From contig CP089278.1 of the NCBI GenBank assembly GCA_023920165.1, positions 3,286,001 through 3,309,251 of the forward strand: a stretch of DNA of 23,251 nt, given 5' to 3'. Under the pieces are notes generated by a model. That model worked only from the letters and a program-made list of their open reading frames with translations, was not told the origin of the DNA and did no database searches. Positions 192-23,190 of this stretch are shown here, in pieces; position 1 is the first letter of the stretch; each line of letters begins with the position of its first letter. The position numbers and the translations under genes are program-made. This DNA is from Curvularia clavata (Eukaryota).

Positions 192-1864
<1,673 letters not shown>

Positions 1865-2878
1865 CTATAACGAGGGTGTAGCTCAAATCTGCATATTATG
1901 GAATTAGCGATTTAGGCGACGGAGGCTACGTGGTAGATCGTGTTGCACGGGCTGATTAAAGCTAGGTGTAGTAGACTTATCACGTCTTGATTATCATAGG
2001 CAACAGCTGAACATATATGATAGCAATAGAGTCGCTAAGAAGAGCAAATATATGCATGCAATTTCACATTTAGTTGAGGGTAGATTTGCAAAGACATATC
2101 CTCGGTGGAGAGGGTGTATGGTTGTAAGAAAGAGAGGGAGGAGACGAGTGTAACAGGTTGAACGCCCTTCAGATAGCTCCTCTATGTAATCTCAATAGAA
2201 TATTGGTTCTACTTAGAGTATCCGGAGTCTAAACACCATCCAAGCGGCACTCAGACAACGCGTTCATACACTTTGGCATAGCCATTCTATACGTACATAA
2301 ACAAAACAACATTACCTTTCTATGCAGTGGTCTTGTCATCTATATTGCTATAAATTCGAACTGGTCATCGGAATAGGAAATTTGGGGCACTGAGTAAGCC
2401 TGGGAGAGCTGGCGATGGCGCTCCTCAAGGTTTAAGTGAGTTGGCTAGCAATCACTTTCCGATTTGTCTATGAGAATGGAACTATTTAGATTATGGCTAA
2501 ATTCAAGACTTGGAGTGACTCAGAAGAAGAAATTACCAAATCCTTCCAGCGTGAGGTAAAAAATGCCAGCGCGTGAAGCCTAAGAGACGTTCCTGAGTGG
2601 GCAGACTCACGATGTGCTGGGACAAATCCGGGGTTCAGGCCATTGGTTCTTCTTTCACAAGTAGTTGCAGAAGTTTCATTTAGATAAATATTCTTAAAGA
2701 TTTAAAGAAAAAAGCCTCTCGCCGGAAGTGAGAATGGGTCCATAGAGAAGTATACTAATATGGGTCAAATCTTGCAATGCATAGACCGGGTTCGCGTCAC
2801 TTGGACAACTCAAGCCCTGACCCTAAAATATACAGGGACTTGCTTGTTCATTTTCTAGAGTGAGTATAGTCCAGACCA

Positions 2879-5800
2879 TTAGCTAAAAACATAGTCCTGT
2901 TGAGGAAGATCCATGATCTGCCATAACCCTCTCACTTTCTGAAGTACTCGTAGATTGAGGCTTTGGCTACGGAAGGGCTCCGTGGTATCGGATGCACCAT
3001 CGTTTTCAGGGGCTTCCGGTTCTCGCACAAGATTGGTTGCTCTCTCCTTTCCCTTTCTTTCTACCACATTTGGGCGATTAGCATGCGGTGTATCAAACAG
3101 CGTATCCGAAGGTGTATCCTCCGTCTCAGAAGTCCCAATCGTTGCCTCTTCACTACAATTCCTTTCTTCCACGATCCAGCACACTCTTGTGCTACGAAGT
3201 TTTGGACGTGGGAGTATCTCCCATTCTGCATTGTATGGTGTGGCCACCATACATGGCCCATCTACGTCGAAGGTGGAAAATAAGGTCTCCTTGCGTCGTT
3301 CTTCTCCACGAGTAGACCAATAGTCTCTGTTTGATAATACTTCAACAAGCGTGCCTGTCGGCCATCGCATGTCGGTAAGTTCATCCGCTTTTGGAGTGGC
3401 TTGAACAAGCTGAGCGAGGCATTGCCGCCTAATTTGTTTGTATATAATGGAGTCAGACTTTTCCGCTGGTAGTTTTCCAAATTCATTCCCTACTCCCGAA
3501 TTTATTTCCGTAGTAGATTCAGAACCTGAGCTGATGTGCGGAGCAGTGCCGTCTTTGCCGTCTGGTGGAATGTATGTTCCACACCAAAGCCTTCCTGTTT
3601 CCATGATCCGATCGACAAACCACAACTGCGCGAAAGTGTTGTCGAGTGTCTCTTCGAGCTGAAGAGTGGCAAATGGGCGTTTCAAAACATCAATGTGACT
3701 GAAAAGAGCATCACTGACCTCATCTGGCAGTGGATCATCCGAGCCTGGGACTTGGTCGGTTCGAACAGATTGCCAAATGCTGGTGGCTAAGCCCCTCGCT
3801 AGAGCCTTTTCCTCGGACACGGTCAGAGTATATCTGAGGATGTCGAAAATGATCTGGGCAAGAAGGTTTTGCATCTCTGGAACTTGATTGATGCGACGAC
3901 TATTGATGTATCGTGTCACTTGTACGCTGCGATGATCGACACTTCCCCAAATCGCCGAATTTTCCGGAATGCAACCAAACTGTCGGAAATCTTCTAAAGC
4001 TCGCTCGTACACACCTGTTTGCGACATCCAATGGGTTATTGTATCATTTCGTGTACGATATTGTTCCCAGGTCTCATCTTTTTGACGTTCTATGATGAAC
4101 TCCCAACATCGTAGCGACTCCCAAGCATCAGCCCAGGTCAATTTGATAAGTGTGAAGTCGATTTCACGATTGACTGACCACGGATATGCCTTTAGAAGCA
4201 CACCATCAGGAGTAGTCTGGCCTGGTCTAATCGTCTGAAGCTTGGTAGTAATGAAGTTGCGTACATGACAGTGTTCGATCCTAGGAGCTTCCATGAAGAA
4301 ACTCTGAAATAATAGTGAGCTCGATGTATGTTCGGCATAGGCATCACCCGAGTAAACTTCATTCGGCGGTAGATATGCCTCCGGCGCAAGAAGAGACAAG
4401 TCGCCGTTGTTTAACGTTAATGCCAATATTGCGAGACGTAGTGAATGAACTTTGTTGCTGACAGCTTTCGTGTCGAGCCGGAAATCGTAGTCGCACATGT
4501 TCGCTATTATAGCGAGTCTGTCGGACTCAAAGTAACATTCGCGATGCTTTAATAGAGTCAAAGCCCCCGCTGCATTGATTGTGGGTCGTTTGCCATAATA
4601 GTTCTCGCTATACATCTCCAGGTCTTGCTGAAGTGTATTTGCTTTCACCGTTCTTGGGTGGAGAGATTCCGCTGCCTGGAGCACTGATCGAGCGCCCGGC
4701 CATGGATCTGCTGGCATGTAGTTAGAGCTTACAAGCATTGATCCTATGACAGAAAAGTCGCGCAGTAGAATATTGTGCATGACGTCGAGAATCCGCCAGA
4801 ATTGGCTCACAGAAATGCAAAAAAGCTTCGAATCGAGTCCACGCGCATGGTCATCAAGTGAATGGTAAGGGCGGCTGTCCGTTTCGCCTTTTCTCTCGTA
4901 CCCGAATTTTGATGAAAAGCTTAGCCCAGAATCGCATCGGAATGCAAGAAACAGCTTCAATCCTGCGCATATAGCCTCTTGAATGACCCAAGCCCGAGTG
5001 TACCATCTGTCTTGACAGGTTTCATGGAGGAAACGAAGGATATGTGTGCAGTACTGGAGCTTCTCGATTGTCGGTGTCGCTTCCCAATTGGAGTGTAGCA
5101 GAGTCTTGATTGCATTGAGTTGCTCCTGTGACGTGATCTTGACGTCGAGTAGGCCCACTGTATACATGGCTCTATTGTAAACAATGTCCATCGACTGTAT
5201 GCCAAGTTCTTGCATCTCCCAATCTGCCTTCGTGCTCGTCTCGGTCGGCTGAGGGAGGCACTCTTGGTCGATCCAGATCATTCGAAAGCCACATGAATTG
5301 GCGAAATCCACAGCACGATCTAGAACATCGTCAAGAGCACGACTGGCTCGGACACGCCCGTCGAGGTCTCGAACCGTGTAGCTTCTTGGAATTGGTTTGT
5401 CGTCTCTTGGTGGCCAACAGTACGACACAGCGACATAATGCATACACATATCCATTGCTGCAATGGTGGCATCACCCTTACCAAACCATGCTGGATGGTC
5501 CACCGTTGGGTTGACCAAACGAAATTTTCGAGGTTTCCATTTATGTGGAAATTCGGGATACCATGCACAAACACGGCATTTGTTTTTTTCTGAGTCATTG
5601 GCGTGGTCCGAGCATTGAGCTTTGTCTTTTTCTGGTATTGGAGCACCATTGTTTCCTAAACTCATCTGTAGGGCGTATTCCTCCTGCGCATCCTCGTCGT
5701 CGCTGTCGAACCCGTTGACTTTGGCATCTGAGTCATCATATATTAAGAAGCAGATGTCTCTCTTTGCCCATCGCTTCGCTTTCTCACGCGTGAATTTGTA

Positions 5801-6058
5801 CTTGGAGATTTCTGCAATCTCCGCGAACACGCCTGACCCTAGCGCTATCGGAGTATCTCGTAGATCGTTCCTCATCTTCACTGGTTCTCTCTGGCAATGC
5901 GGTTTGCTGACATCGGCCTTGTTTCCGGCGCTGTTTATCCCACTCGGCATCAGCTCGTTGTTTTCGACCGAATTATCCCACAATACATCACCCTCCTGCG
6001 CGTGGTCATATAGATCGTCATCTTTCGTTTCGCAGCTCGTATCTAGCGATTCAGTCAT
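2879..6058 (-). CDS. HET-domain (heterokaryon incompatibility, PF06985-like) protein, 1059 aa, single exon
   Basis: Long ORF with HET signature blocks HYVAVSYCW, IWIDQECLPQ, IQSMDIVYNRA, WYTRAWVIQE and a downstream DRLAIIANM motif. Confidence 0.9.
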   Translation of the reverse strand: MTESLDTSCETKDDDLYDHAQEGDVLWDNSVENNELMPSGINSAGNKADVSKPHCQREPVKMRNDLRDTPIALGSGVFAEIAEISKYKFTREKAKRWAKRDICFLIYDDSDAKVNGFDSDDEDAQEEYALQMSLGNNGAPIPEKDKAQCSDHANDSEKNKCRVCAWYPEFPHKWKPRKFRLVNPTVDHPAWFGKGDATIAAMDMCMHYVAVSYCWPPRDDKPIPRSYTVRDLDGRVRASRALDDVLDRAVDFANSCGFRMIWIDQECLPQPTETSTKADWEMQELGIQSMDIVYNRAMYTVGLLDVKITSQEQLNAIKTLLHSNWEATPTIEKLQYCTHILRFLHETCQDRWYTRAWVIQEAICAGLKLFLAFRCDSGLSFSSKFGYERKGETDSRPYHSLDDHARGLDSKLFCISVSQFWRILDVMHNILLRDFSVIGSMLVSSNYMPADPWPGARSVLQAAESLHPRTVKANTLQQDLEMYSENYYGKRPTINAAGALTLLKHRECYFESDRLAIIANMCDYDFRLDTKAVSNKVHSLRLAILALTLNNGDLSLLAPEAYLPPNEVYSGDAYAEHTSSSLLFQSFFMEAPRIEHCHVRNFITTKLQTIRPGQTTPDGVLLKAYPWSVNREIDFTLIKLTWADAWESLRCWEFIIERQKDETWEQYRTRNDTITHWMSQTGVYERALEDFRQFGCIPENSAIWGSVDHRSVQVTRYINSRRINQVPEMQNLLAQIIFDILRYTLTVSEEKALARGLATSIWQSVRTDQVPGSDDPLPDEVSDALFSHIDVLKRPFATLQLEETLDNTFAQLWFVDRIMETGRLWCGTYIPPDGKDGTAPHISSGSESTTEINSGVGNEFGKLPAEKSDSIIYKQIRRQCLAQLVQATPKADELTDMRWPTGTLVEVLSNRDYWSTRGEERRKETLFSTFDVDGPCMVATPYNAEWEILPRPKLRSTRVCWIVEERNCSEEATIGTSETEDTPSDTLFDTPHANRPNVVERKGKERATNLVREPEAPENDGASDTTEPFRSQSLNLRVLQKVRGLWQIMDLPQQDYVFS

Positions 6059-8380
6059 TTCGGTGCTGTGTTAGTCGCGTCTAGAAAGGCTGTGTTACGT
6101 GAGTTCCTATGCGTTAAGAGACCGTACAATTAAATACCAGCCCGTCATCCAGGCAACAGGCGCAAGGCTGAATACGCCCCATTTACCGGGATTGCGTCCT
6201 CTGGGGGCCAAGAACCAGCCCCTCACACGTACATGTCGTATGTCTTTACGCGAGGAATTTCGATAGGCAACGAAAGAGAGTGAGTGTAGCACCAATCAGA
6301 AACATCGATGCGTCTTGAAACATGCATCCTCGGCCTTGGCGTGGAGTATACTACCCTCCTTCTTGGCAATCCTGCTAAAGAGACAAGGTGAGAAAGAACC
6401 GAGGAACCATTTCTCCATTCGTCAAGGCCGGTAGCAGTAGACTCTATTAAGGGTAAGTTACCGCCCGCTAGGATAGAGCCTACAACTTCCCTTCCCTTTC
6501 TATATTGTCGCTGTTACAGTCTTGCTCTATTTATAGTTCTAGCTTTTCCGTGTGCTTACTATAGCACCTAAAAAAAGCAGCAAAGACCTAACATACTTGC
6601 ACAGCTTTCCTTGGTGCCGCCGCGACAGCAATTTTCGGTCAAGGCGGAGAAAGGTGAAACCTTTGTCTTCGAGCATGCCATGATATAGGGTGTTTAACCG
6701 CGTCGCAGCGCTAGGGTTCTAAAAAAAAGTTCTAATTGGACTTCCATATCAGTTGACCGAAGGCTTGGCCGGTGGTGATCAGGCTTAATGAATTGTTAGA
6801 AAGGTGTGCCACGCAAGCAGATTTCGGAAGCTCATTACAAAGTTTGCCTAAAGTAACGTGAATATTTCGAAGTATGTTTCTAGGCTTCTAATATTGTTTC
6901 TGATAATCGAGCTTCTCTCTATTAAGGTTGGATTGCAAAACCAAGTCGGGCACCTAAGCAGGTAAATTGGGACCTTTTCCCAGGCGCGGAGAGTCTTCGC
7001 CACGTATTTAATGTAGGGAGTAAACGCTGTAGAATCTAGGCTAATTATTTTGAAGCAATATTACTGTTGTTTATGTAAGTAGGTCTTGAATTGTTAAAGT
7101 ATAGTTTGGTCGCAAAGGGCTTCCTTTTGAATTTAGACGTAGCTAGTATACTACATATGTTGTCGCGGGGATTTGTCGCTCGTGAAAACTTAGTGGCTAT
7201 TAGTCGTTCCGCGAATGGGGCTCGCTTCTCTTGTAATATCTGATGGTGGAAGGAGGAAACATTGGCCGAACACATCGTTAAGTCCCGAAGCAGGACCTCA
7301 TCTTCGATCATCGTTCCTCCCAGTGGTGTATCCTAAGACAATTGTCTTAGATGCTCATTTCCCCAACCTAAGGTGGACCATCGTACACGGTAAATAGAAT
7401 ATAAGCGCATCCCGTGCTGGGCTACTGCGGTTGGTTCCCTGATCATGTTGCTCGACATCGTCTGGTAGGCACGCCGTGAATGGTATCTTCTTGCATATTG
7501 TGCAGAGCTTTTCCGTCTGCAAACTAGCCACATGCTTTAATATCTTTACTTTATCAGAACCATGCAATATGATGCTACTGATGCTATGCTGTATATCTGA
7601 AACTTGTGGCGAACCCCAAACCACATCATACTTGTTGTCTTTGCCTTCTCCCTTGATTGATGCTATAGAGTCATCACCTTCGTATTCCCCAGAAAATCCA
7701 TTTTACGTGCGGTCAGTAGGAAACAGATTGTTGAAAGCCATGTCGGGAGTACTAAATGTATTAATCATGCCCTGCGAAAATATAGTGAGAGATTCGTACT
7801 ACCTGTTCTTGTAAAGCATCCTCTTTCATCAAGATTCGGACATCTAACAAAGTGTGGGAACGAGAACATCAAGCAACAGGCATAGGTAATGTTGTAGCTA
7901 GGCCGTCGTAAGATTTTAGGCTATTGTCGAGTGGTACAAGCCCACACACAGTTGTCTGCTCTGACCCTTCGGAAACTTTGGACTACAGTGTAGCAATCTA
8001 AATTCTCCGTTAATGATTGCTATTTGATGAGGATCGAATAGCACCAGGTTGGAAATCTAAATCTGGCGTTCAGAAGAAGACATAAATTAAAGCAAGCTGT
8101 CCCACATGAACGCCCAAGCGCTGTGATAGTTTAGACAAGATAACGTAACTAGGGAGGCTAAGCAAGCGATCCTAAAGAAAGAGGGAACATTCTCTATGGC
8201 TTGCAAGATACCTAAGTGTACGCATCAGAGACTGTGGGCAGTCCAAATGGTTAAAAGCCGGAAACATCCGAGCTGGGAACGGATTCCGGTTTCCAGCAGT
8301 CTGCATGAGGCGATCATGGCGTCTATCATAGTGGTGGCGGTACGCCTCTTCCATAGCATACTGGAATCATAAAGGCTCTG

Positions 8381-10218
8381 CTATACCTCTCGCGCGGATG
8401 TATGATTCCCAGCAGCAATCAACTCGCGACCCCGTTGGAAGAGAGCAGCGGCCATGATAATCTTTTCGTCCTGCCATCGCCTTCCGACGATTTGCATTCC
8501 GATCGGGAGGGAAGGGGGAGAGGAGGCGTCCTCGGCCGATCGAGGAGGAGAAGGCGTACCAAAGCCGCAAGGCACACTCATCGCGGGGTGACCCGTTACG
8601 TTGAAGGGACAAGTATTGTTGGTCACGCCGATGGTGGATTCCAGTCGCTTTAGAATTGTAGTAAAGTTAGCATTCTCGAGCTTGTCGTTGGACGAGGACG
8701 AGGAGCAGGAAGTCTGCGACGGGAGAGGCATTGCGACCGAGGGAGCACACGGCGTGACGAGAACGTCGACGTCTTCGAGCGCGCGATCATACACTGCACG
8801 CAATTCGAAGACTTTGCGATGGGCTTTGGCTTCGATACCCGACGTCACGTGGTCGTGGGTGAATTGGCTGCTGAAGAGAATGTTGGCGAGAGCGGGGTTG
8901 GTGGCGGAGATGGACTCGAAGGTCTGCTGGGTCAGGGGCCAGCGGGGACGGAGGTGTGGCGGGGCAAAGCTCAAATGCCCGGCTGGGCTGCCTTGATACA
9001 GGTATTTGGACATGGATGGACGGCTGGCTGCTGTCCAGATGATTGGGGCTTCGTGGTGCATGGGGATCGAGATGGGGGCGACTGTTGCACCTGCAGCTTC
9101 GAACGCTGTGGTCGCTGCCTTGATCACTGTCTGTTGGACCAGGGAGGATACGCCGGGCATGGAGAAGGCTTCGGTCAAGAGTCCTACCCGCCATGCCCGG
9201 CCTGTCTCGGGCTGGACTTTGAGTTGCTCTTGGAAGTCCTCCAGGAGGCGTTGATAAGGTTTCACGTTGTTCACCAGTGGAGATTCGGGCGACATGCGCG
9301 AATCCAAACCGTCGTAGCCTGCCATGACTTCCAGTAGGATCGCAATGTCCTTCAGATGGGTGGCGATGGGACCAAGATGGTCGATCATGGGCATCATGGA
9401 AGCAGCGCCAGTATATGGTACCAGGCCAAAGGTAGGCTTGAGGCCCAAGAGGCCACAATACGAAGCTGGAATGCGTACGGAACCGGCCTGGTCACTGCCG
9501 ATTGCCAGTTCCACCGTCTCTCCAGTCACCTCGGGCTTGTCCGGATAGAGGGCGTGAGCAGCCACGAGTGCGCACGAACCGCTACTACTGCCTCCGGAGG
9601 TGTAGCCGTGGAGGTGCGGATTATGCACGGGACCAGAGGCAGACGTGAAGGACAGAGGCGAAGCGCAGAAGCACTCACACGTGGACGTACCTTTGATGGT
9701 TCCGCCCGCTGCCAGAACACGAGAGACAACAGTGGCATCAATGGGGGACAGGGGATATTCGTTCTGGTCGGAAAGGATCGAAGCCGGCGCTCCAAGTGTT
9801 GTTGGCAGGCCTCCTACGCAAATGTTATCTTTGATGGCCACGGCGCGGCCCTGCAGACGCTGGTTGCTTGGTGCGGCGGCAGAGAGATTGCATTGGTGGC
9901 TCCAGGCATTGTATGGATTCTGCGCGGCGGTTGGTGCCCAGTATTGTCGAGGCTGCACAGTCGGCAGCGGCTGCAACTGTGATGGTATATAGTCGGCGCC
10001 TCTCTCGACGTGGCTGAGGACGCTCTCGAAAGACCAGATCAGGCGCAGATAGTCGTGGGCATCTCTATCGTCCGAGACATCAATACCAAGCCGGCCCGCC
10101 AATTGACGAAAGTCATCGACCTGGAAACCGGAGCTTCATGACTGTATGAGCAAGCGCATATATAATCGAGGCTGGCGCCCTCTTACCTCGACTCGTCTGC
10201 GAGTGCTATGATGGACAT
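8381..10218 (-). CDS. Amidase-signature family enzyme, about 594 aa; probable exons 10218-10187 and 10133-8381
   Basis: Ser-cisSer-Lys motifs AIKDNI, GGSSSGS, GSDQAGSVRIPAS, plus C-terminal NVTGHPAMSVP and LPIGMQIVG. ATG at 10218 and a GTAAGA...AAG intron (10186-10134) restore the frame. The 5' exon model is less certain than the family call. Confidence 0.9.
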
Positions 10219-11220: not shown

Positions 11221-11763
11221 TGTTACAGGTAACAAGGAAGGATCTCTCCTGACGAAGGCCGCATGGTAAGAGACCATCGGGCGACCACGTCAAAGGGTAA
11301 GGACCTCTGCGGGGCAGAGGTCACGTAACGCGTCATCCCGCTAAGACTGGCCATCTGGAATGGCAGTGTATAAAGAGATAGCAACGCCATCCTAGTCCTC
11401 CCGCTAAGAAGGGATGGACGGGATGGTAGGACTAGAGATAATAGATATAAGAATATATTAGATTTTATTATTACACTTGTTATAGTTAATTTAGCAAAGT
11501 ATTTTCTATAACGTAGTTTATAAGCAAGTCGGTCATACAAGCGAGTCGGTCACCCTACTAACTTTGCGCACCTTTACAAGCGTATAGCTCCACTACATAT
11601 AGATAGTTTTGATAGATATTAAGATAGTAGATTAATTACTATCTAGAGTATCTTTCTTATATATATACGAGTTATAGCCAGTCTCTTTATATCTACTACA
11701 GCGCGCAAGAGCCCGGCTACTAACATCTAATCGCTCTCCTCCCTAACGCTCTTTATAAGCAAT

Positions 11764-12190
11764 TGTTAAGAGTATGATCTCGAGTGGAAGTAATATAAAA
11801 CTTCTGGTATCAAGATCTTCTTGGGTTGGTTTTCGCGGATAAAGCAATAGTGTGTTATGAACAAAGGGTCTATAGTAACTATTATATTATAGGTACTATA
11901 CTCGTAACTTAAGTTGAACACATTAAGCTATAAGGGCTTAATATCTATTCCTATATACTTATAGTGCTCGCAACCCTCAGTCAGAGGAGTCCGAGTAATC
12001 CTCGGTGGCTTATGTACGAGGAGCATTCCTCTGTAGCTTATGCACGAGGAGTCTGCCAAGACCCTTCCTCGGACATGCGCTACCGAGGAGGTTACGTAAT
12101 ACGTGCCCCCGCGTTATATATAGCTGGGTCGACTGGTCGTTAATACTTCTTAACTTAACCGCCGTGCCTCTTCCCCCTAGGTTCGTAATA
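11764..12190 (-). repeat. 3' LTR of family A element
   Basis: TGTTAAG...TTCGTAATA. Colinear with 18079-18505; the differences I compared were C>T/G>A transitions. Confidence 0.95.
11975..12088. promoter_or_regulatory. Four CCTCGG-N10-CCGAGG-type palindromic sites in LTR U3 (also at 18290-18403)
   Basis: 11975-11996 CCTCAG/CCGAGT (CCTCGG in the other LTR), 12000-12021 CCTCGG/ACGAGG, 12028-12049 CCTCTG/ACGAGG, 12067-12088 CCTCGG/CCGAGG. All have a 10-nt spacer and lie just upstream of the TATATA box (11952-11957) in element orientation. Confidence 0.7.
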
Positions 12191-12245
12191 CTATCCTCCT
12201 CCTTCTTAAGCTTGTCCTTAAGCTTTTCCTTATGCCTAGCTAATA

Positions 12246-12758
12246 ATATCTACCTTTAGATCTAAAGAATATCTTCGTCTTACTCTTGAGATTCGTCGTA
12301 ACGGTCTCCCCGCGCCCGTCCCCTGCGATTATTATTTTGCGAACAACTATTAGTGCGTCGCGATGCCCGAAGTCGACGGCAAGCGTTTGAAGTGCTCCAA
12401 GTGCACTCGTCTGGGTCACCTATATGTTAACATATCGTGGGTGTTATTAGATAAGACTCGTGAAGAGTATTAAAAGAAAGTGGATAAAGATAAGCAATTG
12501 TTAACTTAAGTGATTTCGCGGTTAATACGAAATAAGAAGATTCTGAAGTAGGCTGAGGAACGTGCTATGAAGAAGACTATGTGTTTAGCGAATTTCTTGC
12601 GCGAAGGTGGTGATGATGTGGATGCGCAAGAGTCTCTGAACTGCCTCGCGGCCGACGCGTTGGTGGGGTTCTCGCCTGTCATGTGGAGCACTTTAGGTTC
12701 TCTAGACGCCCTGGCGTCGTCCTCGAATCCTAGCGATGCTCCTGTTTTTTCTTCTTAA
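12246..12758 (+). pseudogene. Antisense ORF3 of the retrotransposon, about 170 aa, Zn(II)2Cys6 cluster plus coiled-coil-like segment, RIP-damaged
   Basis: One frame from ATA (ATG after de-RIP) at 12246 to TAA at 12756-12758. Internal stops are TAG/TAA, consistent with RIP of CAG/CAA. Cys positions at 12324, 12333*, 12354, 12393, 12402 and 12423* (* = TAT, RIP of TGT) give C-x2-C-x6-C-x12-C-x2-C-x6-C. Confidence 0.8.
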
Positions 12759-15700
12759 TGGTAAGTTCTTTTTGTAGTTTCGTAGTGTCTTTTAACAATT
12801 ACTAAGATTATCCTCTGGTTTCTATGTATTTTCGCTGTTGTCGTATCCTAACTATTTAACTAGGTACTCAGTTTTATTGCGCGTGGTTCGGTGTGCTAGG
12901 ATTTTCTCGACTTCGAATTCGTCTTCTTCTTCTAGTTTGAAATGGAATATTTTTTGTAATAGCGTTTCGGGGTCTGCGGGTTTTAATAACTTGATATAGA
13001 ACCTTGGGTATATCTTTGCATCTGGTGGTAGATCGAGTGTGTAGATAACTGGTCCGTTCTGGGTTTTAATCAAAAATGGCCCGACATAAATGTTGTCCAA
13101 TCCCTTGCTTGGTCGTGTCGTGCGAAGGTTCTTCGTGAGCAGATATACTTTATCTCTCTTTTTTAGCTGAGGTGCTATTTTTCTTTTCTAATTGATATAT
13201 GAGATACTTTAGCGTTGAGCCTTCTTGAGTGATTCTTGTAGTTCTTCGTGTATTTTTTTCATTTCTTTAGCTGTGGCGATGGCTGCTTCTGTTTTCAAAT
13301 TTAGTAACGTTCTAGTAAAGAGATTCGGGTGTCTTCTGTGGTTTGCGTAAAATGGTGTTTGTTTCATTGATTCTAATAATTTGTTGTTATATGCTAGTTA
13401 TGCCATAGGTAGTAATTATATCTAATTATTTTGCTGATGGTTGGCGTATATTCGTAGGTATGTTTTTATCGTACGGTTTGTCCTTTCCGTTTGTCTATCG
13501 GTTTCCGGGTGGTATGCTGTGGATAGTTTTCGCTTGGTACCTATTTCTGCTTGGAGTGTGGTCTAGAAGTTGGATATAAAGAGCTTGTCTCTGTCACTGA
13601 TGATTGATTTTGGTATTCTATATTGTCTGATAATAACGTCTAGGAAGACATGCGCTAGTTTAACTACGTTGTAGTCTTTCCTGAATTTTCTAAATTCTAC
13701 GTATTTCGTGAATCTGTTAATGATAACTAGTATCGCGTTATAGATTGTACTAGTGACGGGGTCTGTTGATAGTGGTAATTCTATGACGAAGTCTATAGAG
13801 ATGTCTGCCCAAGGGGTGTTTGGCAGTTCTAGTGCTTGCATTTCTCCGTATAGTGCGTGTGTGCTATGCTTATTCTTCTGACAGTGTTCGCATTTAGCGA
13901 TAAAGGCTGCGACCTTTTCTTTTATTTTGCTGAATTCGAAGTTTCTTTAAATTAGTTCTATTATTCTGGCGATTCTGGGATATCTGTGTATAGAGTTGTC
14001 GTGATGTTGCTGAATGATTGCTTCCTACTAGTTTTCAGATATATCGTTTCCGATTGTTATAAGTAGGTTGAGCTCGTGTGCTAGACTCAATGTTCTGTTT
14101 TTGTTTGTCTGTAGTATTGGTCGGTCTATAATAGTTTTTGTCCCTGCAATATCTAGCCTTCTGCTAAAAGCGTCTGCTCTGCTGTTGTCTTTTCCTAGTA
14201 TGTATACGATCTTGAATTTGTATTGCCTAAGCATCTTAGCCTATCGGGTCTATTGTCGGTTAAGAACCTTAGTAGTGGTGAAGTAGGTTAAGTTCTTATG
14301 ATCCGTGTATATAGTGAGTTCTGAGTAGCTATGTGTGTAGACTCTCTAGTATTGTATACAGGCTACTATAGCTAGTAGTTCTTTGTCGTATATATCGTAT
14401 CGTTCTTCTAGTCTTGAGAGCTTCCTTAAGTAGTATACTATTAGATGCCATTTGCTATTAATGTAGATGCTGGCGCATCCTCCTAGGGCTAGGTCTAATG
14501 CGTCGGTTTTAAATTTCAGTAGTACTCCTGGAATGAATATTCTGAAGCATAGTGGTGTGGTGTATGCTTTTTTAATTATCTTAAAGGCGTTATCTGCCTT
14601 TTTATTCTAATTCTATAGGGTATCTTTTCTCGTAAGCCGTATTATTAGTGTTACGATTTTTAAGTAATCTTTGATAAATTTTCGGTTAAAATTTATAAAT
14701 TCTAAGAATGACTAAATATCCGTAACTGACTTTAGTATCAGCCAATTTTTAATAATCTCAATTTTTTCTTCGCTTATTTGTACTCTGTTAGTCCCTACTA
14801 CATAGCCTAAGAAGTTGACCTTAGTCTTGTAAAATTCACACTTCTTCAGCTTGAGTCGAAGACTGTACTCGTCTAGGGCTTTTAATATCTTTCTGACGTG
14901 CTTAGTATATTATTTTTCGTTCTTGGAGTAGATTAGGATGTCATCTAGGTAGGCGATAACGAATATATCTAGATAGGGTCTGAGTACGTTGTTAATGAGT
15001 TCTTGAAACATAGCTGGGGCGTTTGTTAGCCCAAATAGCATAACTATATATTCGTAGTGTCCGTATCGTGTTCAGAAAGCCGTTTTCCATTCTTTACTTT
15101 TTTTAATTCTAATAAGGTGGTATCTGTCTCGTAGATCTAATACTATAAAGATCTCTGCTTAAGATAGTCGATCCTTAAGTTCTCTAATATTTGGTAGTAG
15201 GTATCGATTCTTAACCGTGATGTCGTTGAGTTGTCTATAGTCGACGTATAGTCGATTTGTTCCGTCCTTTTTTAGTACGAATATAATAGGGTATTCCGCT
15301 AGGGATTTCGATGGTCATATATAGCTTTTTACTAGTAACTTATCTATATACTCTCGTAGTACTGTAAGTTCTCGTTCTGATAGTTAGTAAATTAGGCCGA
15401 AAGTCGGTTACTTTCCTTTCTATAGGACTATTTTATAGTTCTAGAGTTAATGCTTTAGTAATACTTATTCGTCTACCACTTTCTAAAATAGATACTTAAA
15501 TTCTCTATATTATTCAGAGATTTCTAGAGTTGCGCCCTTCTCCTTTCCTCTAGCTTTGTAGTCCGCTGGCCTGGTTTCAGTACCTGCTGAGTTTGGCTTC
15601 CTGCTCTGGGAACTACCTTTCGAGTACGCTCGTTTCTCTGCGTTATTGCACTGTTTGGCAATATTACTCTCATCTACCATCGAACTCTGCTAATACGTAG

Positions 15701-16142
15701 GCTGGCTTGCGGTTACGCCTAGTCCGCAGCACTCGAATTTGAACACTTTCGACTTCTAGTCAATCTGCGGGTTGTATTCTTATAGCCATAGAAGTCCTAA
15801 AATGATGTTGTGAATAGCTAGTCCAAGGACGTCTAGGTCCATTTTCTCCTTATATTCTTAGATACTAAATATTACTTGTCTAACCTCGTCTGTAATTCTG
15901 TTTCCTTTAGGTATTAGTTCGCCGCTGGCGACATATAGTGGGTATAGCTCTTGTTTCCGCTATACTTCAAGTCCGGCTTGTTACACTGCGTGCGCTGAAA
16001 CGTAATTTGCCTATAATCCTAAGTCTACTAATGCCTACATCCGTATTCTATTAAGCTTCACTATAAGCTTAATCAATCCTAGGGAGTTTACTGAGTTAAT
16101 TTCCCTAGAGGGGCCCTACCTTCGTAGCGCTGGCTTAAAAAA
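12702..16142 (-). pseudogene. pol: pol polyprotein (protease, RT, RNase H, integrase, chromodomain), RIP-damaged
   Basis: ALVD(L/S)G protease near 16025, YLDD at 14940-14951, TDA(L/S)DLALG RNase H near 14500, integrase PWADISIDFV and SIISDRDKLF, chromodomain EFEVEKILAH...YLVK. Protease, RT and chromodomain share one frame. The 3' end is approximate. Confidence 0.93.
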
Positions 16143-18061
16143 GTCTGTAGTTTTTTTATGAATCTATTATAGAGTTTTTCTACTTCGTGTTTCTCGCATT
16201 TATCTAAGAGACAAGTGTGCCATAAGGGTTAGTTGCATACTTGTTATACATTACTCTTACTTCGAATAATACGAGTAGTTTGCATATCCACCACTTCTTT
16301 TAGGCTATCTCTTCTAGGGAAGTATATCGCGGTGCGCTTATCCTATAGGTGCCTCGCGCATCCTATATTAGTACATTCTGACCATATCTAGTTGCATTTA
16401 GGGTATCCGGGAATACTGGTTGGGTTCTAGTCGGATCCTCGCTTAGCTTGCCAATATATTGGGCAGAAGTTATGGGTACAACCTGTCTAGTGGATCCACG
16501 CGTGCTTATAGTTATTTGCGTGATACTAATAAGGACTCAGTTAGTACTAATTGTCGCGTGTCTAGTTAGCTTGTGCCTTTTTAGCCTATTGAGGTGTTGT
16601 TATAGAATTTTTCTTGTCTTTGGGGAACTCCGTGTTTCTTCGTAGTCGTTGGATGTTGGCCGTAATATACGTGTAGTCTGGTAGCTTCTGATTGGTTGTG
16701 ATAGAAAAGAAGTCGATATCTAATCTGAGATTCTATATATCTTTATATATATGAAGAAGTACGTTGGGCTCGTTGTAATTATACCTGTGAAGGGGTTAAC
16801 TCAAGAGTTGTCGTAGTACATTAGTCTGTAGTTCTATATATTTCGGGTCATCCCTTGCGTGTGGGATTTCTGGTGAGGCGCTGTTATGGCGCGGAGTAGC
16901 CGGTTGGTGTTTCTTTTTAAACTTGGCCATCTTCTTATATTTAGTTTTGTGCGTAGGAGTTTCTTCTTTCTTGCTGGGTGTTTCGTACTCTTCGTCGCTG
17001 CTTAGTTTAGCTTTAGTGGTGTTCTTGGACGTGGTGAGCGTGACATTCTCTAGTCCGCTGATGAGTTCCTCGTCGTCTGGGTGGTATCGGATTTTGGCTG
17101 GGGTGATGATATTCTATCTCTTGTCATTATCTAATTCTGATTTCCTGCGTAGTATATTGAGCTGTCGCTTGACCTTATTAGTGTCTTTACTTCTACAGTC
17201 TCGTGCCATGTGGCCTTCCTTGCCACAGGCGTAGTAGTTAAATTTCTTCTTGCCCTTAGATGGTTCCTTGTTGAACTTGTAGTGCCCGTTGCCTTTATTG
17301 ATGTTGTCGAGGTGTATTAGTTTAGTACTGTATCTTTGGTAGGCTCCTAGGGTTCTAGGCGTATAGTTTCGCTATCAACCTTTATTCGGGTGAGCACGTC
17401 AATAGCTATACTTCTTAGGTCGTTCGTTTATATATCTCTAGTTACGCGTTCCTTTGCTAAATGGTCATTCTTCTAATAAAAGTTCGTAGAGTTCGTTGTC
17501 CAGTTGAATGGATTCTTTAATAAGTTCTTCCAGTGTAATAATACTAGCTCCACTTCGCATGAGTTCCCTGTGTACAGTAGGTTTGAGACCTTGCTTATAT
17601 ATTTGTATGAGAGCGTTATTGTCCTATTCTATAATCGTAGCGTACTGCTGAAATAGTGTAGTATAGTTAGCAGTGGACTGCGTCTGGCGAAGTTTCTAGA
17701 TCTTTTATTCCGTAATGACTGATTCTTTGAATAGTGAGAAGTTCTGTCGCATTTTGGTTTTGAAGGCGTCCCAGTCCTCGACTAGGGCTGTATTATTGGT
17801 ATTCTGGATAGAGTCATCTATATAGCGTTTAATAATAGGGTTAGCCTACTTTTTAGTATCGCCGCGAAGATATAAGGTGGCCACGATGACTTTGTCGGTG
17901 TCATCGATCTTGTCTCCTTCAAGATAGAAGTGTCGGTCGACTTAGAGGAGCTAAGCCTTAAGCTTCTTGCGTTCTCTATAGTATAAGTCGGGCTTATATC
18001 TACGAGTAGTGGATCCTCCGGTCTAGGAAGCGTCGGGAGTGTTTATAGCAATATCACTCAT
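16088..18061 (-). pseudogene. gag: gag, unusually long (about 657 codons), RIP-damaged
   Basis: ATG at 18061 (MSDIAINTPDA...), capsid-like KVIVATLYLRGD, zinc knuckle (C)YACGKEGHMARDC at about 17195-17236, and an in-frame extension with three W-x2-C-x4-C-x2-H repeats. Confidence 0.85.
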
Positions 18062-18078
18062 CGTAAGGGTGTTTAAAG

Positions 18079-18505
18079 TATTAAAAGTATAATTTTAAGT
18101 GGAAGTAATATAAGACTTCTAGTGTTAAGATCTTCTTAGGTTAGTTTTCGCGGATGAAGTAATAGTGTGTTATGAATAAAGGGTCTGTAGTAACTATTGT
18201 ATTATAGGTACTGTACTCGTAACTTAAGTTGAATATATTAAGTTATAAGGGCTCAATGCTTATTCCTATATACTTGTGGTGCTCGCAACCCTCGGTCAGA
18301 GGAGTCCGAGTAATTCTTGGTGGCTTATGTACGAGGAGCATTCCTCTGTGGCTTATGCACGAGAAGTCTGTCAAGACCCTTCCTCGGATATGCGCTATCG
18401 AGGAGGTTACGTGATGCGTGCCCCCGCGTTATATATGGCTGGGTCGACTGGTCGTCGATGCTTCTTAACTTAACCGCCGTGCCTCTTCCCCCCAGGTTCG
18501 TAACA
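18079..18505 (-). repeat. 5' LTR of family A element
   Basis: TATTAAAAG...TTCGTAACA. On the minus strand it is followed by a PBS-position motif and the gag ATG 18 bp later. Confidence 0.95.
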
Positions 18506-19082
18506 GCAATCTGCTCATTAGTATCGCGTTAAGCGATAATATCCTTACTAGCTCCTTTTATAAGTACTTCTTACTTCTATATTCGCTTTCTTTTATACTA
18601 TCTATACTTTAATACTAGCTTATTAGCCTTCTAAAGACTAGTAATCTAATCGCGCATTAGCTTAGCTAATAGTATTATTACTTACGCGTCTTTCTTAAGC
18701 TAATTAATTACTACAATAATTAAAGCTAGTAAAGAGCTTTTATACTATTAAACGCGATTACTTATTAGTATTAATTAAGCTTTAAGCTCGCGTACATTAC
18801 TTAGCGTACAGGGCTGCCAGAGAGCTTCTGCGAAAGCAGCTAGAGGAGTAGGCGTACGTAGCTATACGTCAAGCTTTAATAGAATAGTATCTAGCTAGAG
18901 AGGAATAAGGCCTACGCCTTAGAAAGCTAAGCAGATATTAGCTGGCGTAAAAGATTAATTAAACGCTACCTTAAACGCTAGTAGAAACTCAAGCTTAGTA
19001 ATATAGTTAATATAGTTATGTATTAGACTCTCTACCTTATGGCTATACGCGCGCTTTAATAGAGAGAAGTAGCTAATGTTAA

Positions 19083-19117
19083 GAGACTAGAGTAGGTGAG
19101 ACTAGAGTAGGTGAGAC
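19083..19117. repeat. 15-bp tandem duplication GAGACTAGAGTAGGT inside the transposase
   Basis: Two exact copies at 19083-19097 and 19098-19112 plus GAGAC; duplicates the SHLLQ codons. Confidence 0.85.
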
Positions 19118-19186
19118 AAGTAAAACGGCATACAGAGCGTATAGATATTATTCTCTTTATAGAGCTCTTAGAACTTAAGTAACTAG

Positions 19187-19536
19187 TGTTGTAGATCTAA
19201 GCTAGTCAGCTAATCTACAGTATCTGGGTGCGTACTTCTATACCCAGAATCAACTTAGTCTATAGTCGATCTGTCAAGACTATAATCGATCTATAGACAT
19301 CTGTCTATGACGCCAAAGATTACGCAAGCTACTACTAGATAGATTCTTCTAGAATCTACTCCAGCCAATATATATAGTAGTAGAATAGCTAGTAGATAGA
19401 AACCAGAGCAGTTTATACAAAGTCAATCGTGTCCATCAACTCTCTCCCCTAGCAATCTCTCGTCTATCTAGAGTCTCTCGATCAGGCTGTCTAAGTCTAC
19501 TACTAGTAGTACTAGCAGTCACCCATTACTTTAACA
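19187..19536. mobile_element. Solo LTR of family C (350 bp) inserted in the pogo transposase
   Basis: TGTTG...TAACA termini and 5-bp TSD ACTAG (19182-19186, 19537-19541). Removing it rejoins the transposase frame just after the LLILDGHESH-equivalent motif. Confidence 0.88.
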
Positions 19537-20981
19537 ACTAGTAGCTCTTATAGCTATTAAGGATAAGTAGCCAGTATACTCTAATAACCTTACTATCTAT
19601 ATACTTAATAAAGTACTTTAGCTACTTAATTCTAAGCTTATTAGTCGTCCAGCCGTTTTTACTCACTGTGATTGCCCAGTCGCGTAGAATTTGTACCTCC
19701 TCGTACCAGGCAGATAGGTAATACTTACCAGTAAAGATCAGAAATAGTGGAATAGACTAGCCAGCTACGTTAATTATAGTAATAAACGTTACCCACTTAC
19801 GACCATCTAGCTAGATAGCCTTTAGATAGCCTCTTCTCTCTAATACTATAATAATAAGCTAAATAGTAATCTTGTCTATTAAAAAGCCAGCTTTGTTAAA
19901 GTTGTAGACGTCCTCGTCGCAGATACTATACTTAGCCTTCGTCTACTCTATAAGCTTAAACCAGCTCTTAATTAAGACCAGATCTTTATATAGGGCTCTC
20001 TATCTATTATACGCTTAATTAAAATACGTCGTAAGACTATCTATACGCTTAACAAAGTTACGCGGCCAGTAAACGCCAACCTAGCTAGCGTCGCGCGTAG
20101 CTAGCAGCTTATCAGCTATATCTCGCACAGCAGCATAGGTAGGCGCAAATCTATATAGATCGAGATCGATTATACAGCTAGCAATTACTTACTCTTCTAG
20201 CTGCGATAGCTTCTTTAAATTAGGCTAGCAATCACGCTGCGCGTGCCTCCCAGCGCGTCAGTCGATCAGTATTAATTTCGGAATATTAAAGACTATAGTA
20301 GCGTATTAGATACTCTAGATTTAATTACTATCTAGAGAAGAAAGAGCAAGCTAAATATCCCCTTTATAAAAAGTTAATTTAGAAGCGTAGTGTGGAGACA
20401 TTGTGCGTAAAGTTAAGATAGGTAATCAAAGCTAGAGAGGTGACCGACTCGCTTATATGACCGACTCGCTTATAAACTACGTTAGTTATCTTTTATATTT
20501 AAATTAATACTAGTTATTCTATTTTCTAATAGAATTAGTTTTATCTATTTTTATTATTCTCCACTACTAAATTGCTAGATAACTACCTCGCGGTATATTT
20601 TATAGAAACTGGCCTCGCCTTAACCTAGAATCTAGACTAGGTAAGTATATTCCTACTAATAAGTAGGACTCTATATAACACTTTAACTATCTATAGATTT
20701 AGTAAGCGGTTTAATAGTAAGCGTCTAACTAAGATATTACTATATTACGCAACTCCAACGAGTATATTAACTAGACTGGTAAACGGGTATTGACCCACTT
20801 TTCTTCTTTCATCAATATCTCATCAAAGACTAGTCCAAATCGAGTAATTCTGACGTCATTTTAATGCCCTAAGCTAGCGCATTCTATTATGTAATATAAA
20901 GCTAAGCCGTATCTAGCTTAGTTTAAAAGTTATTTAATAGCCCGTTTGTGAGCCCTAGGGCTGGGTTATGAGTCGGGTATA

Positions 20982-21800
20982 ACGTACCTCACGGGTTCGC
21001 GGTCCACACGGGTTCGCGGTCCACTTTTGCCAAGACCCTACTAAAACTACCACATTATAGCCTAATACAGCCCAACTTTAGCTAGTTTAATACAAAAAAA
21101 TATAAAATACTATTTAGAGCCTACTTCTGCTTTATTCTTATATATTCGCGCGTTATATCTAGTCCTATTGCACCGTCTACACCGCTGTTGAGACGGTTTA
21201 CCTACTTCAGCGCGCTTCTATTTCTTTAACTTCTTCCTATTACTACGCACTCTAAAGTCCTAGAGAGCAGTTAAGCGCACCCTATCTTTAACTATTAAGA
21301 TCCTCTCTATCTAAACCCGCTTTCTTTTATGCAATTTTTGTCGCGTGGCGGCTGCGTTAGCTGCTTTAAGCTTACTAATTTATTTTTATACTAACACTAG
21401 CTTATGCGCGATAATAGCTGCCCCCTTTAAGACCTTTTTAAAAGTCTCTACTATAGACGTTAGTGAGCTGTCTAGGTGCCTCTAAATCCTCTACTTTACT
21501 AGCGTTAATTGCGACCCTATTTTAAGAGTATTCCTTAGAGTTTACGACAGCTAGAGCTAGATATTAATAGGTAGAGGTAATAGAGTATATAACTAGATAT
21601 TAAGGGTAGATATAACCCGTTCTAGATTAAATAGGACCAATCTAGCGCTTTAAAACCCTCTTTAGATATTACTAGCTATAAATAATATATTAAAAGCCCG
21701 CCTAAAGCAAGGTAGAAACTCTTGTTTAGTGATATGGTTGATCTAGGTATGTATAAGCGATTCGACTTGGCGCCTATAGGCCTACTTTAAAGGGGCAAAA
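20982..21800 (-). mobile_element. Second pogo/Fot1 element (Molly-like), 3' part only
   Basis: TA followed by TIR ACGTACCTCACGGGTTCGCGGTCCACACGGGTTCGCGGTCCAC (20982-21024, internal 17-bp tandem), which resembles the Molly terminus as I recall it. Minus-strand FAPLK.AY.RQ...HITKQEFLP and C-terminal RCRRC..T.(H)NAR. Cut at 21800 by an LTR; the other TIR is absent. Confidence 0.88.
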
Positions 21801-23083
21801 TGTTACGAACCAGGGAGGAAGAGGCACGGCGGTTAAGTTAAGAAGCATCGACGACCAGTCGACCTAGCTATATATAACGCGGGGGCACATATTATATGAC
21901 CTCTTTAGTAGCGCATATCTAAGGAAGGGTCTTGGCAGGCTTCTTGTACTTAAGCTACAGAGGAATACTTCTCGTATATAAGCCACCGAGGGTTACTTGG
22001 ACTCCTCTGACTAAAGGTTACGAGCACTATAAGTATATAGGAATAGGTATTAGGCTCTTATAGCTTAATATATTCAATTTAAGTGTTAAGAGTATAATCT
22101 CGAGTGGAAGTAATATAAGACTTCTGGTGTCAAGACCTTCTTGGGTTAATTTTCGCGGATGAAGCAACAGTGTGTTATGAACAAGAGTTCTGCAGTAACT
22201 ATTATATTATAGGTACTGTACTCGTAACTTAAGTTGAACACATCGAGCTATAAGAGCTTAATGCCTATCTCTATATACTAAGTGAGTGTTCTATATCCTA
22301 TACCATCCTATAGTGTTTCGCGTTATCCTATGCGTGGGATATCGTGGGATTATATAGGATTCTGTAGGATATACGTGACATATCCTATAGTGGCGTTCCG
22401 CCAAGCATGTGGGACGTGTGATTACTTATGCGTTATTAGCTGGTAATATGGTTCTCTTTCAAAGAGGTCCCGACATGGGCTTCATCCTTCTTTCTTCCCA
22501 TATCTTGCGCTGTTCCCCTCTGTCAGGTTCGTAACATTAAGTTACGAGTATAGTACCTATAATATAATAATTACTATAGAACCTTTATTTATAACATACT
22601 ATTACTTTATCTGCGAAAACTAATCTAAGAAGATCTTAATACTAGAAGTCTTATATTACTTCTACTTAAAATTATACTCTTAATACTTTAAATACTCTTA
22701 TAATAAGCGATATTGCTATAAATACTTCTAATACTTCTTAGACCGGAGGATCTACTATCTATAGATATAAGCCCAACTTATATTATAGAGAACGTAAGAA
22801 ATTTAAGACTTAGCTTCTCTAGATTGACTGATACTTCTATCTTAAAGAGAATAAGATTAATAATACTAATAAGATTATCGTAGCCACCTTATACTTTTGC
22901 GGCGATACTAAGAAGTAGGCTAATTCTATTATTAAACGCTATATAGATAACTCTATCTAGAACGCTAATAATATAGCCCTAGTCGAGGACTAGGACGCCT
23001 TTAAAATTAAGATATAATAGAACTTCTTACTATTTAAGGAATTAGTTATTACAGAATAAAAGATCTAGGAACTTCGCTAGACA
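21801..23083 (+). mobile_element. Truncated second copy of family A chromovirus: 5' LTR (21801-22083 plus 22542-22685 = 427 bp) and first 381 nt of gag (22703-23083)
   Basis: Reverse-complement colinear with 18505-17681, more heavily RIP-mutated, and ends at the telomeric repeats. Confidence 0.93.
22084..22536 (-). mobile_element. Nested solo LTR (453 bp), family A variant with a different U3
   Basis: TGTTAAG...GTTCGTAACA termini and TSD TTAAG (22079-22083, 22537-22541). 22084-22279 matches family A, whereas about 22280-22520 does not. Confidence 0.9.
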
Positions 23084-23190
23084 GGGTAGGGTAGGGTTAG
23101 GGTTAGGGTTAGGGTTAGGGTTAGGGTTAGGGTTAGGGTTAGGGTTAGGGTTAGGGTTAGGGTTAGGGTTAGGGTTAGGGTTAGGGTTAG
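23084..23190 (+). repeat. Telomere: GGG(TAGGG)2(TTAGGG)15TTAG
   Basis: Canonical TTAGGG array with the G-rich strand running toward the sequence end. Confidence 0.98.

Follow-up and report, generated by a model that had tools for sequence, protein, structure and literature searches.

Four palindromic units of 22 bp lie close together in a long terminal repeat (LTR) of a dead retrotransposon of Curvularia clavata, and the question that this locus raises is which protein, if any, reads them. The locus lies in a stretch of 23,251 nucleotides (contig CP089278.1, positions 3,286,001 to 3,309,251, assembly GCA_023920165.1), hereafter called the window, in which a Ty3/gypsy chromovirus killed by repeat-induced point mutation (RIP) occupies the minus strand from 11764 to 18505 (copy 1). 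This element carries an antisense Zn2Cys6-like gene, ORF3, and an earlier note on this DNA had proposed that the encoded zinc-cluster protein binds the units in the element's own LTR. We find that the array of units is best read as a U3 enhancer module of the dead chromovirus and that the same layout recurs in its ORF3-bearing relatives. The single most likely candidate for the reader of this array is ORF3, an assignment that we hold tentatively, at somewhat less than an even chance.

The units and the array that they form are as follows.

11975-11996: unit 1, CCTCAG-N10-CCGAGT
12000-12021: unit 2, CCTCGG-N10-ACGAGG
12028-12049: unit 3, CCTCTG-N10-ACGAGG
12067-12088: unit 4, CCTCGG-N10-CCGAGG, a perfect palindrome
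11975-12088 (114 bp), strandless: array of the four 22-bp dyad units, common form CCTCG-N12-CGAGG

The same four units are found in a second LTR at 18290-18403 and, heavily mutated, in a third, inverted LTR piece at 21903-22016, and their spacer is 10 nt long in four of the four units of each LTR copy. The four 22-bp units with a fixed 10-nt spacer reported in the earlier note are therefore all present at their positions, and also in two other LTR copies, as is the CTCGG-N10-CCGAG that it had placed at 18291-18310 in the second LTR, where unit 1 (18290-18311) reads CCTCGG...CCGAGT instead of the CCTCAG...CCGAGT of the 3' LTR. The consensus CCTCGG-N10-CCGAGG proposed there holds only in part: unit 4 matches it perfectly, but exact CGG-N10-CCG is restricted to one unit per LTR copy. 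Inverted CGG triplets are present in unit 4 (12070-12085) and in unit 1 of the 5' LTR (18293-18308), and not in units 2 and 3, whose right arm reads ACG in all three LTR copies. When motif counts in the window were compared with those in shuffles, CCTCG-N12-CGAGG with at most one mismatch gave six matches, all inside LTR copies, against a shuffle mean of 0.41 (none of 100 shuffles reached six). An enrichment of exact CGG-N10-CCG was rejected on the same kind of count, with three matches observed in the window against 2.49 expected and 42 of 100 shuffles reaching three.

Units 2 and 3 are a 28-bp tandem duplicate. Since the unit 4 spacer, read as its reverse complement, agrees with the spacers of units 2 and 3 at seven of ten positions (eight of ten with the common variant T>C at 12081), unit 4 probably is an inverted copy of the unit that is duplicated in units 2 and 3. 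The spacers of sites 1 and 4 had been described as unrelated, which is correct for unit 1, the only one with a truly unrelated spacer, but not for unit 4. Because units 2 to 4 are related, the argument from conserved half-sites and spacing within this LTR rests on two independent units, not four.

Dyad arrays recur at the same U3 position in related elements. We compared 40 related loci from a scan of metagenome contigs, which are not independent and make up roughly eight or more lineages by ORF3 sequence; the ORF3 proteins of the array-bearing lineages are only ~40-63% identical to the query. Read in the direction of ORF3, the relatives show a GTTGAACAC-type block, CTATATAC (the sense TATA box) and the repeat array, followed by GTCACGTGAC (in one large clade), the LTR end (..CGTAACA), the complement of the polypurine tract, with the motif CTATCC(T/C)CC, and the start codon of ORF3. 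The TATA-like box lies at the same place relative to the conserved GTTGAACAC-type block and was placed by this rule in 22 of 31 upstream regions; together with eight boxes placed by hand, and with L038 left out, these gave a set of 30 U3 stretches. In 23 of the 30, the observed count of 5-nt inverted pairs was reached by none of 200 shuffles, the stretches that failed this comparison being L001, L017, L020, L023, L028, L039 and L040. CTCG-N12-CGAG or CTCG-N13-CGAG occurs in 16 of the 30 stretches, and CGAG/CTCG is enriched in 15. The spacing from CTCG to CGAG follows the series 3/12/21 in the window, L007, L020 and L028 and the series 4/13/22 in L017, L021, L029-L035 and L040, and L003 and L005 have the same geometry with CTCA/TGAG. 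Many units consist of two CTCG and then two CGAG with a 9-bp period, so that two N12/13 dyads overlap in each; in L014, L016 and L018, N4 dyads predominate. The half-sites vary by lineage (CGAGG, CGAGC, TGAGC, CGTGAG, GATCAC, CGATAG), and a CACGTG box is found in 11 of the 22 rule-placed U3 stretches and also in L004, L007, L012 and L015. Extra pol copies without an ORF3 match, in L031 and L032, belong to other, more distant families (35-38% identity).

CGG-N10-CCG was found inside the array in none of the 33 upstream regions scanned; L033 and L040 have one common CGG-N10-CCG 16-mer at about -436, outside the array. The Put3-like CGG-N10-CCG sites of the earlier note are thus not borne out in the family, in which CTCG/CGAG or CTCA/TGAG, 12-13 nt apart, is what recurs. 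Judged by sequence comparison, the conserved features are the U3 position, the CTCG/CGAG-type core and the 12-13-nt spacing, not the CGG triplets.

The anatomy and orientation of copy 1 can be read directly from its parts.

11764-12190, minus strand: 3' LTR of copy 1, element sense 12190 -> 11764, TG..CA ends, 90.3% identity to 18081-18503
12191-12207, minus strand: polypurine tract, AAGAAGGAGGAGGATAG on the minus strand, directly before the 3' LTR
12191-18069, minus strand: internal region of copy 1 (gag with CCHC knuckle, reverse transcriptase, RNase H, integrase, SH3, chromodomain), more than 100 stops
18070-18505, minus strand: 5' LTR of copy 1, TG..CA ends, carrying the second array at 18290-18403
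12246-12758, plus strand: ORF3 relic, antisense Zn2Cys6-like gene of 170 codons, with ATA as start codon, four internal stops and two cluster cysteines read as Tyr

The Pfam matches of the internal region (Retrotrans_gag, zf-CCHC, RVT_1, RT_RNaseH, Integrase_H2C2, SH3_Tf2-1 and Chromo) are all in minus-strand frames. As gag-pol is on the minus strand and the polypurine tract adjoins 11764-12190, this LTR is the 3' LTR and its U3 begins at 12190 in element sense. A 5-bp target duplication, GCAAT, flanks copy 1 (11759-11763 and 18506-18510), which indicates that the insertion is complete and that both LTR arrays come from one template. The differences seen in an alignment of the three LTR copies are transitions only and the element region is AT-rich, which fits RIP in an ascomycete. 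Copy 1 itself is dead, and the functional claim concerns the element family.

In element sense, U3 runs from the LTR start through a decayed CACGTG box, the array (12088 -> 11975) and the TATA box to the conserved block, with a further candidate element on the ORF3 side.

11950-11958, minus strand: sense TATA box, GTATATAGG on the minus strand, 17 bp downstream of the array (unit 1) in element sense
12091-12100, strandless: decayed E-box, GTTACGTAAT here; C at 12093 and G at 12098 in other copies give a CACGTG core
12115-12122, plus strand: TATATATA, on the ORF3 side of the array, largely RIP-made and unreliable as a promoter element

The sense TATA box GTATATAGG is identical in all three LTR copies, and the units do cluster immediately upstream of it in U3, as the earlier note had observed. 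The sites had also been placed ~160-270 bp upstream of the ORF3 start, and we measured 158-271 bp; a suspicion that the wrong strand had been used was dropped, since this distance fits the plus-strand ORF3 start at 12246. Other copies of the family were compared by means of contigs of four DNA runs (X1-X4) at 80% likeness, the comparison being one of contigs only. A look for RNA data sets that contain the LTR-ORF3 stretch of the window gave none. The plus-strand TATATATA was rejected as a promoter of ORF3, being largely RIP-made: other copies have C at 12117 (T>C, 52% of X1 depth and 92% of X3 depth) and G at 12122 (A>G, 81-90% of depth). Many other copies have G at 11979, which restores the CGG of unit 1. 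The length of the array differs between copies, with skips of 105, 128 and 167 bp, and many contigs diverge within the array region, directly after 11959; subfamilies within one run have R-U5 and the TATA box in common. Because copies skip it or diverge after 11959, the array is a variable module joined to a shared R-U5-TATA part.

The summed contig depth of X1, which is not copy number, was ~3,900-9,400 over R-U5, ~1,300-2,100 over the array and ~500-1,300 over ORF3, a profile that suggests solo LTRs or an R-U5 part common to other subfamilies.

The candidate reader is encoded just beyond the 3' LTR. The ORF3 relic is 78-79% identical to intact proteins of 171 aa. Its close homologues number 59, and a profile run against 1.84 billion representatives yielded 400 clusters (50% identity) at E <=0.001, with lengths of 55-407 aa among the 150 listed. 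ORF3 is convergent with pol, whose end lies on the opposite strand, in 40 of 40 related loci, and six cysteines and 34 further columns do not vary among 23 intact relatives. On these sequence comparisons, ORF3 is a real, conserved gene. A search for longer proteins with the ORF3 domain found none, which is weak evidence that ORF3 stands alone. The pol tail appears to overlap the 3' end of ORF3 on the opposite strand (12640-12758 in the window), so that the conservation of the C-terminal ORF3 motif (invariant C, S, P and W) may partly be common to both frames. A TATA-like box (TTATAAGC or CATAAGC) lies 40-48 nt before the ORF3 ATG in 16 of 37 loci, all of one clade (L001-L019, L023); it sits between the LTR end and the ORF3 start, often with a CCCCGC-like run after it, and may be the core promoter of ORF3. 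In the other clade, the LTR ends ~50 nt before the ORF3 ATG, leaving such a box no room, and a TATATA-like word is found inside the LTR (L030, L034, L024, L026). The contig ends of the metagenome loci showed no poly(A) tails and no common ends.

The invariant cysteines (C27, C30, C37, C50, C53 and C60) are spaced CX2CX6C-X(9-14)-CX2CX6C across the family, and ORF3 has the Zn2Cys6 spacing, here defined as CX2CX6CX5-12CX2CX6-8C. The long helix and much of the second lobe are conserved as well. Basic residues that contact DNA between the second and third cysteines are a feature of Gal4; the ORF3 consensus over this stretch, the most variable of the domain, is CFxxGRxC, with no conserved Lys pair. 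The AlphaFold model of ORF3, with a mean predicted local distance difference test (pLDDT) value of 70, has short helices at the Cys pairs (28-32 and 51-56) and a long helix (65-120). When this model was searched with Foldseek, the best 20 rows were all Zn2Cys6 DNA-binding domains, including those of Hap1, Ppr1, Pho7, Put3, AlcR, Leu3 and Gal4, with a best E-value of only 0.18. VIA-align gave Z scores of 2.3-3.1 at a root-mean-square deviation of ~2 Å over 36-38 residues (Hap1 Z 3.1, 2.1 Å over 38 residues; Pho7 Z 2.9; Gal4 Z 2.4). In these model comparisons, the predicted ORF3 fold is closest, if weakly, to the DNA-binding domains of Hap1, Ppr1, Pho7, Put3 and Gal4.

ORF3 is also predicted to form a homodimer: the dimer model scored 0.51 against 0.01 for the best of three controls, and its runs agree in at least 100% of contacts, with a partner pLDDT of at least 82. 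In calibration, the mark was reached by 21 of 30 solved one-chain pairs and none of 23 solved single chains from microbes, and by 17 of 29 pairs and none of 30 single chains from eukaryotes. Unlike in the calibration, zinc was included in the ORF3 run, for which the ORF3 alignment itself was not used, and this pass may reflect the predictor's memory of zinc-cluster dimers, which have been solved.

The reading that we prefer is that the array would be an enhancer-like part of U3, set between the CACGTG box and the sense TATA box, whose units would comprise one of separate origin and three derived from a single unit through direct and inverted duplication. These units would be binding sites of a dimeric, sequence-specific protein, which at the 5' LTR would drive sense transcription and at the 3' LTR could also drive the antisense ORF3, whose start is 158-271 bp away. 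If this protein is ORF3 itself, the element would contain a complete transactivator-and-site circuit. We infer the three parts of this circuit, namely enhancer activity of the array, DNA binding by ORF3 and its binding to this array in particular. The ORF3 gene and the arrays travel together in the relatives. In addition, the half-sites change between lineages while the CACGTG box stays constant in many, a pattern more in keeping with an element-borne partner that evolves fast than with a conserved host factor, and the Cys2-Cys3 stretch in the first lobe of ORF3 is variable, like the half-sites. The earlier proposal of a zinc-cluster protein with its own LTR sites finds partial support in the Zn2Cys6 spacing, the weak fold match, the predicted homodimer and the recurring arrays, but several observations weigh against it, beyond the lack of CGG triplets in the relatives' arrays. 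ORF3 scores 10.6-17.2 bits against Pfam PF00172 (Zn_clus), below the gathering cut-off of 21, even if this is the family touched by most ORF3 members (13 of 23 at E <=1, with a best E-value of 0.0056), and a profile search of PDB sequences at E <=10 returned no zinc-cluster protein. The modelled ORF3 dimer is antiparallel (residue i contacts ~175 minus i), which would hold the cysteine clusters far apart and not over a 22-bp dyad; Gal4 and Put3 have parallel coiled coils. Three of the four units are copies of one another, and their likeness may reflect duplication history rather than selection. Some copies of the family are without most of the array, the 105-bp skip (11992-12096) being found in one contig of each of the four runs, and in the clade of L008, L009, L013 and L023 the array consists mostly of direct CGATAG repeats instead of dyads. 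Finally, the half-site CGAGC is common to lineages with very different Cys2-Cys3 residues; when half-site classes were tabulated against ORF3 residues, no simple code was visible, and relatives share labels by descent.

Several of these points would be explained if the array were a U3 enhancer read by a host factor, either a cellular Zn2Cys6 protein or another dimeric protein, with ORF3 otherwise employed (in copy-number control, silencing evasion or integration targeting), a reading that we consider quite possible without being probable. Enhancers of LTR elements are bound by host factors as a rule, with Tea1 on Ty1 as a precedent (in a passage of PMC10968565), and the adjoining CACGTG box resembles a host-factor site; a host factor would also suit the lack of a significant Zn_clus match in ORF3, a modelled dimer geometry that is ill-suited to a compact dyad, and a half-site common to lineages that differ in the variable lobe of ORF3. 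However, a conserved factor should hold its motif, as CACGTG was held, and the half-sites change between lineages while the architecture stays constant; subfamilies that share R-U5 and the TATA box nevertheless diverge right after 11959, in the array. A unit series without any sequence-specific reader, whether left behind by local duplications, direct and inverted, in a fast-changing U3 or with a hairpin or cruciform role in DNA or in the 3' U3 RNA, appears unlikely to us. The relation between units 2, 3 and 4 and the variable length of the array agree with it, and several arrays fold well as RNA relative to shuffles (z = -8.4 in L030, -4.2 in L018, -3.3 in L005 and -2.9 in the window 3' LTR), but the array of the window 5' LTR folds no better than shuffles (z = -0.4). 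Moreover, the same core of 4-5 nt, beyond mere complementarity, is repeated up to 22 times per U3 across divergent ORF3 lineages, with the spacing series 3/12/21 and 4/13/22 kept, and it is because of these identical repeated cores that we favour a sequence reader over a structural role. If ORF3 does bind the array, it could do so as a repressor or copy-number brake rather than as an activator. The evidence for binding is the same in both cases and the data do not tell the sign of the regulation, and a protein bound at a distance of only 17 bp from the TATA box could get in the way of the assembling transcription machinery; against this, fungal activating sequences usually consist of several sites placed upstream of a TATA box, and Pfam searches found no repression domain in ORF3, which makes a repressor quite improbable in our view.

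Besides copy 1, the window contains a second chromovirus copy on the plus strand (21803-23082), whose 5' LTR is split into two parts (21803-22096 and 22533-22683); a further LTR piece in direct orientation lies between them at 22081-22279. This arrangement points to a rearrangement or to nesting of an LTR fragment. Within gag, the second copy is cut off by a run of ~17 tandem TTAGGG units, the telomere repeat of fungi, at 23085-23190, after which come ~60 nt of unrelated sequence; the run may represent telomere repeats at an interstitial site, the healed end of a chromosome or a join made in assembly. The two chromovirus copies stand head to head, and between them, within 18506-21800, sits the relic of a DDE_1 (pogo/Fot1-type) DNA transposon with many stops (Pfam match ~19530-19800, minus strand). 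The left part of the window (779-10102) consists of ordinary fungal genes.

21803-22096, plus strand: U3-side part of the 5' LTR of the second family copy, with a heavily mutated array at 21903-22016
779-1861, plus strand: cytochrome P450 fragment, host gene beside the repeat-rich block
2882-6058, minus strand: HET-domain protein, host gene beside the repeat-rich block
8384-10102, minus strand: amidase, host gene beside the repeat-rich block

How the array and ORF3 compare with known regulators bears on what such a pair would be. Put3 sites have a spacing of 10, and four Gal4 sites lie between GAL1 and GAL10. The array resembles such sites in being a set of fixed-spacing dyads upstream of a TATA box and between divergent genes, here the sense gag-pol and the antisense ORF3; unit 4 is an exact CGG-N10-CCG, as in Put3 sites, an analogy that holds for this unit and not for the family. 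Site spacing is strict in such systems, with 11 bp for Gal4 and 6 bp for Ppr1 according to a passage of PMC10250231. Unlike Gal4 and Put3 sites, the relatives' arrays contain no CGG-N10-CCG (0 of 33) and have a CTCG/CGAG core 12-13 nt apart, and unlike those proteins ORF3 remains below the Pfam cut-off and is modelled as an antiparallel dimer. Zinc-cluster proteins can also read TCG/CGA palindromes instead of CGG, as in AflR-type sites (TCG-N5-CGA). The core found here does contain TCG...CGA, but the spacing differs and AflR is a large host regulator. The Tea1 site, CGG-N10-CCG, lies inside Ty1 rather than in U3. As in the case of Tea1 and Ty1, a zinc-cluster or zinc-cluster-like protein would be paired with a retrotransposon enhancer, ORF3 binding being only a candidate here; Tea1 is the product of a host gene, whereas ORF3 is encoded by the element. 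Tea1 is a yeast host protein that binds the Ty1 enhancer (Gray and Fassler 1996, as cited in a passage of PMC10968565).

Antisense extra genes have been described in other Ty3/gypsy elements. One is brtn, an additional antisense gene in Boty-like Gypsy elements of Botrytis cinerea (Zhao et al. 2011, via PMC8365987); the passage of PMC8365987 that cites it proposes no cis-element for brtn. Like brtn, ORF3 is an extra antisense gene of a fungal Gypsy element, lying between pol and the 3' LTR, a likeness in description. Plant Tat/Ogre elements also have antisense extra open reading frames, which, unlike ORF3, encode plant-mobile-domain or transposase-28-like proteins and not cysteine clusters (in a passage of PMC4408406). 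Searches of the main texts of openly readable papers turned up no retrotransposon in which a zinc-cluster gene is paired with cognate sites in the LTR, and no self-encoded transactivator circuit of a fungal LTR retrotransposon. Among retroviruses, foamy virus Tas binds U3 and an internal promoter, and HBZ of human T-cell leukaemia virus type 1 (HTLV-1) is an antisense bZIP gene transcribed from the 3' LTR. If ORF3 binds the array, the chromovirus would resemble these complex retroviruses in encoding its own regulator with LTR targets, and HBZ is likewise antisense and read from the 3' LTR; Tas and HBZ differ in that they belong to vertebrate retroviruses and are unrelated to ORF3 as proteins.

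The transcription of LTR retrotransposons is generally held to rely on host factors, and transactivators encoded by the element itself are characteristic of the complex retroviruses. Arrays read by a host factor would be ordinary U3 enhancers. We propose, with reserve and as something possible rather than probable, that a widespread clade of fungal chromoviruses consists of 'complex' retrotransposons, each with an antisense gene for a small dimeric zinc-cluster-like transcription factor and, in U3 between the sense promoter and the ORF3 promoter, an array of dyad sites for this factor, the two co-evolving as private, lineage-specific pairs. Should the U3 arrays be read by ORF3, fungal elements would have arrived independently at the strategy of complex retroviruses, and the retention of the antisense gene in hundreds of lineages would have an explanation. 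There would then also be a natural set of small factor-site pairs (proteins of ~170 aa and sites of 22 bp) that is open to orthogonality testing, and solo LTRs would scatter element-controlled enhancers near host genes.

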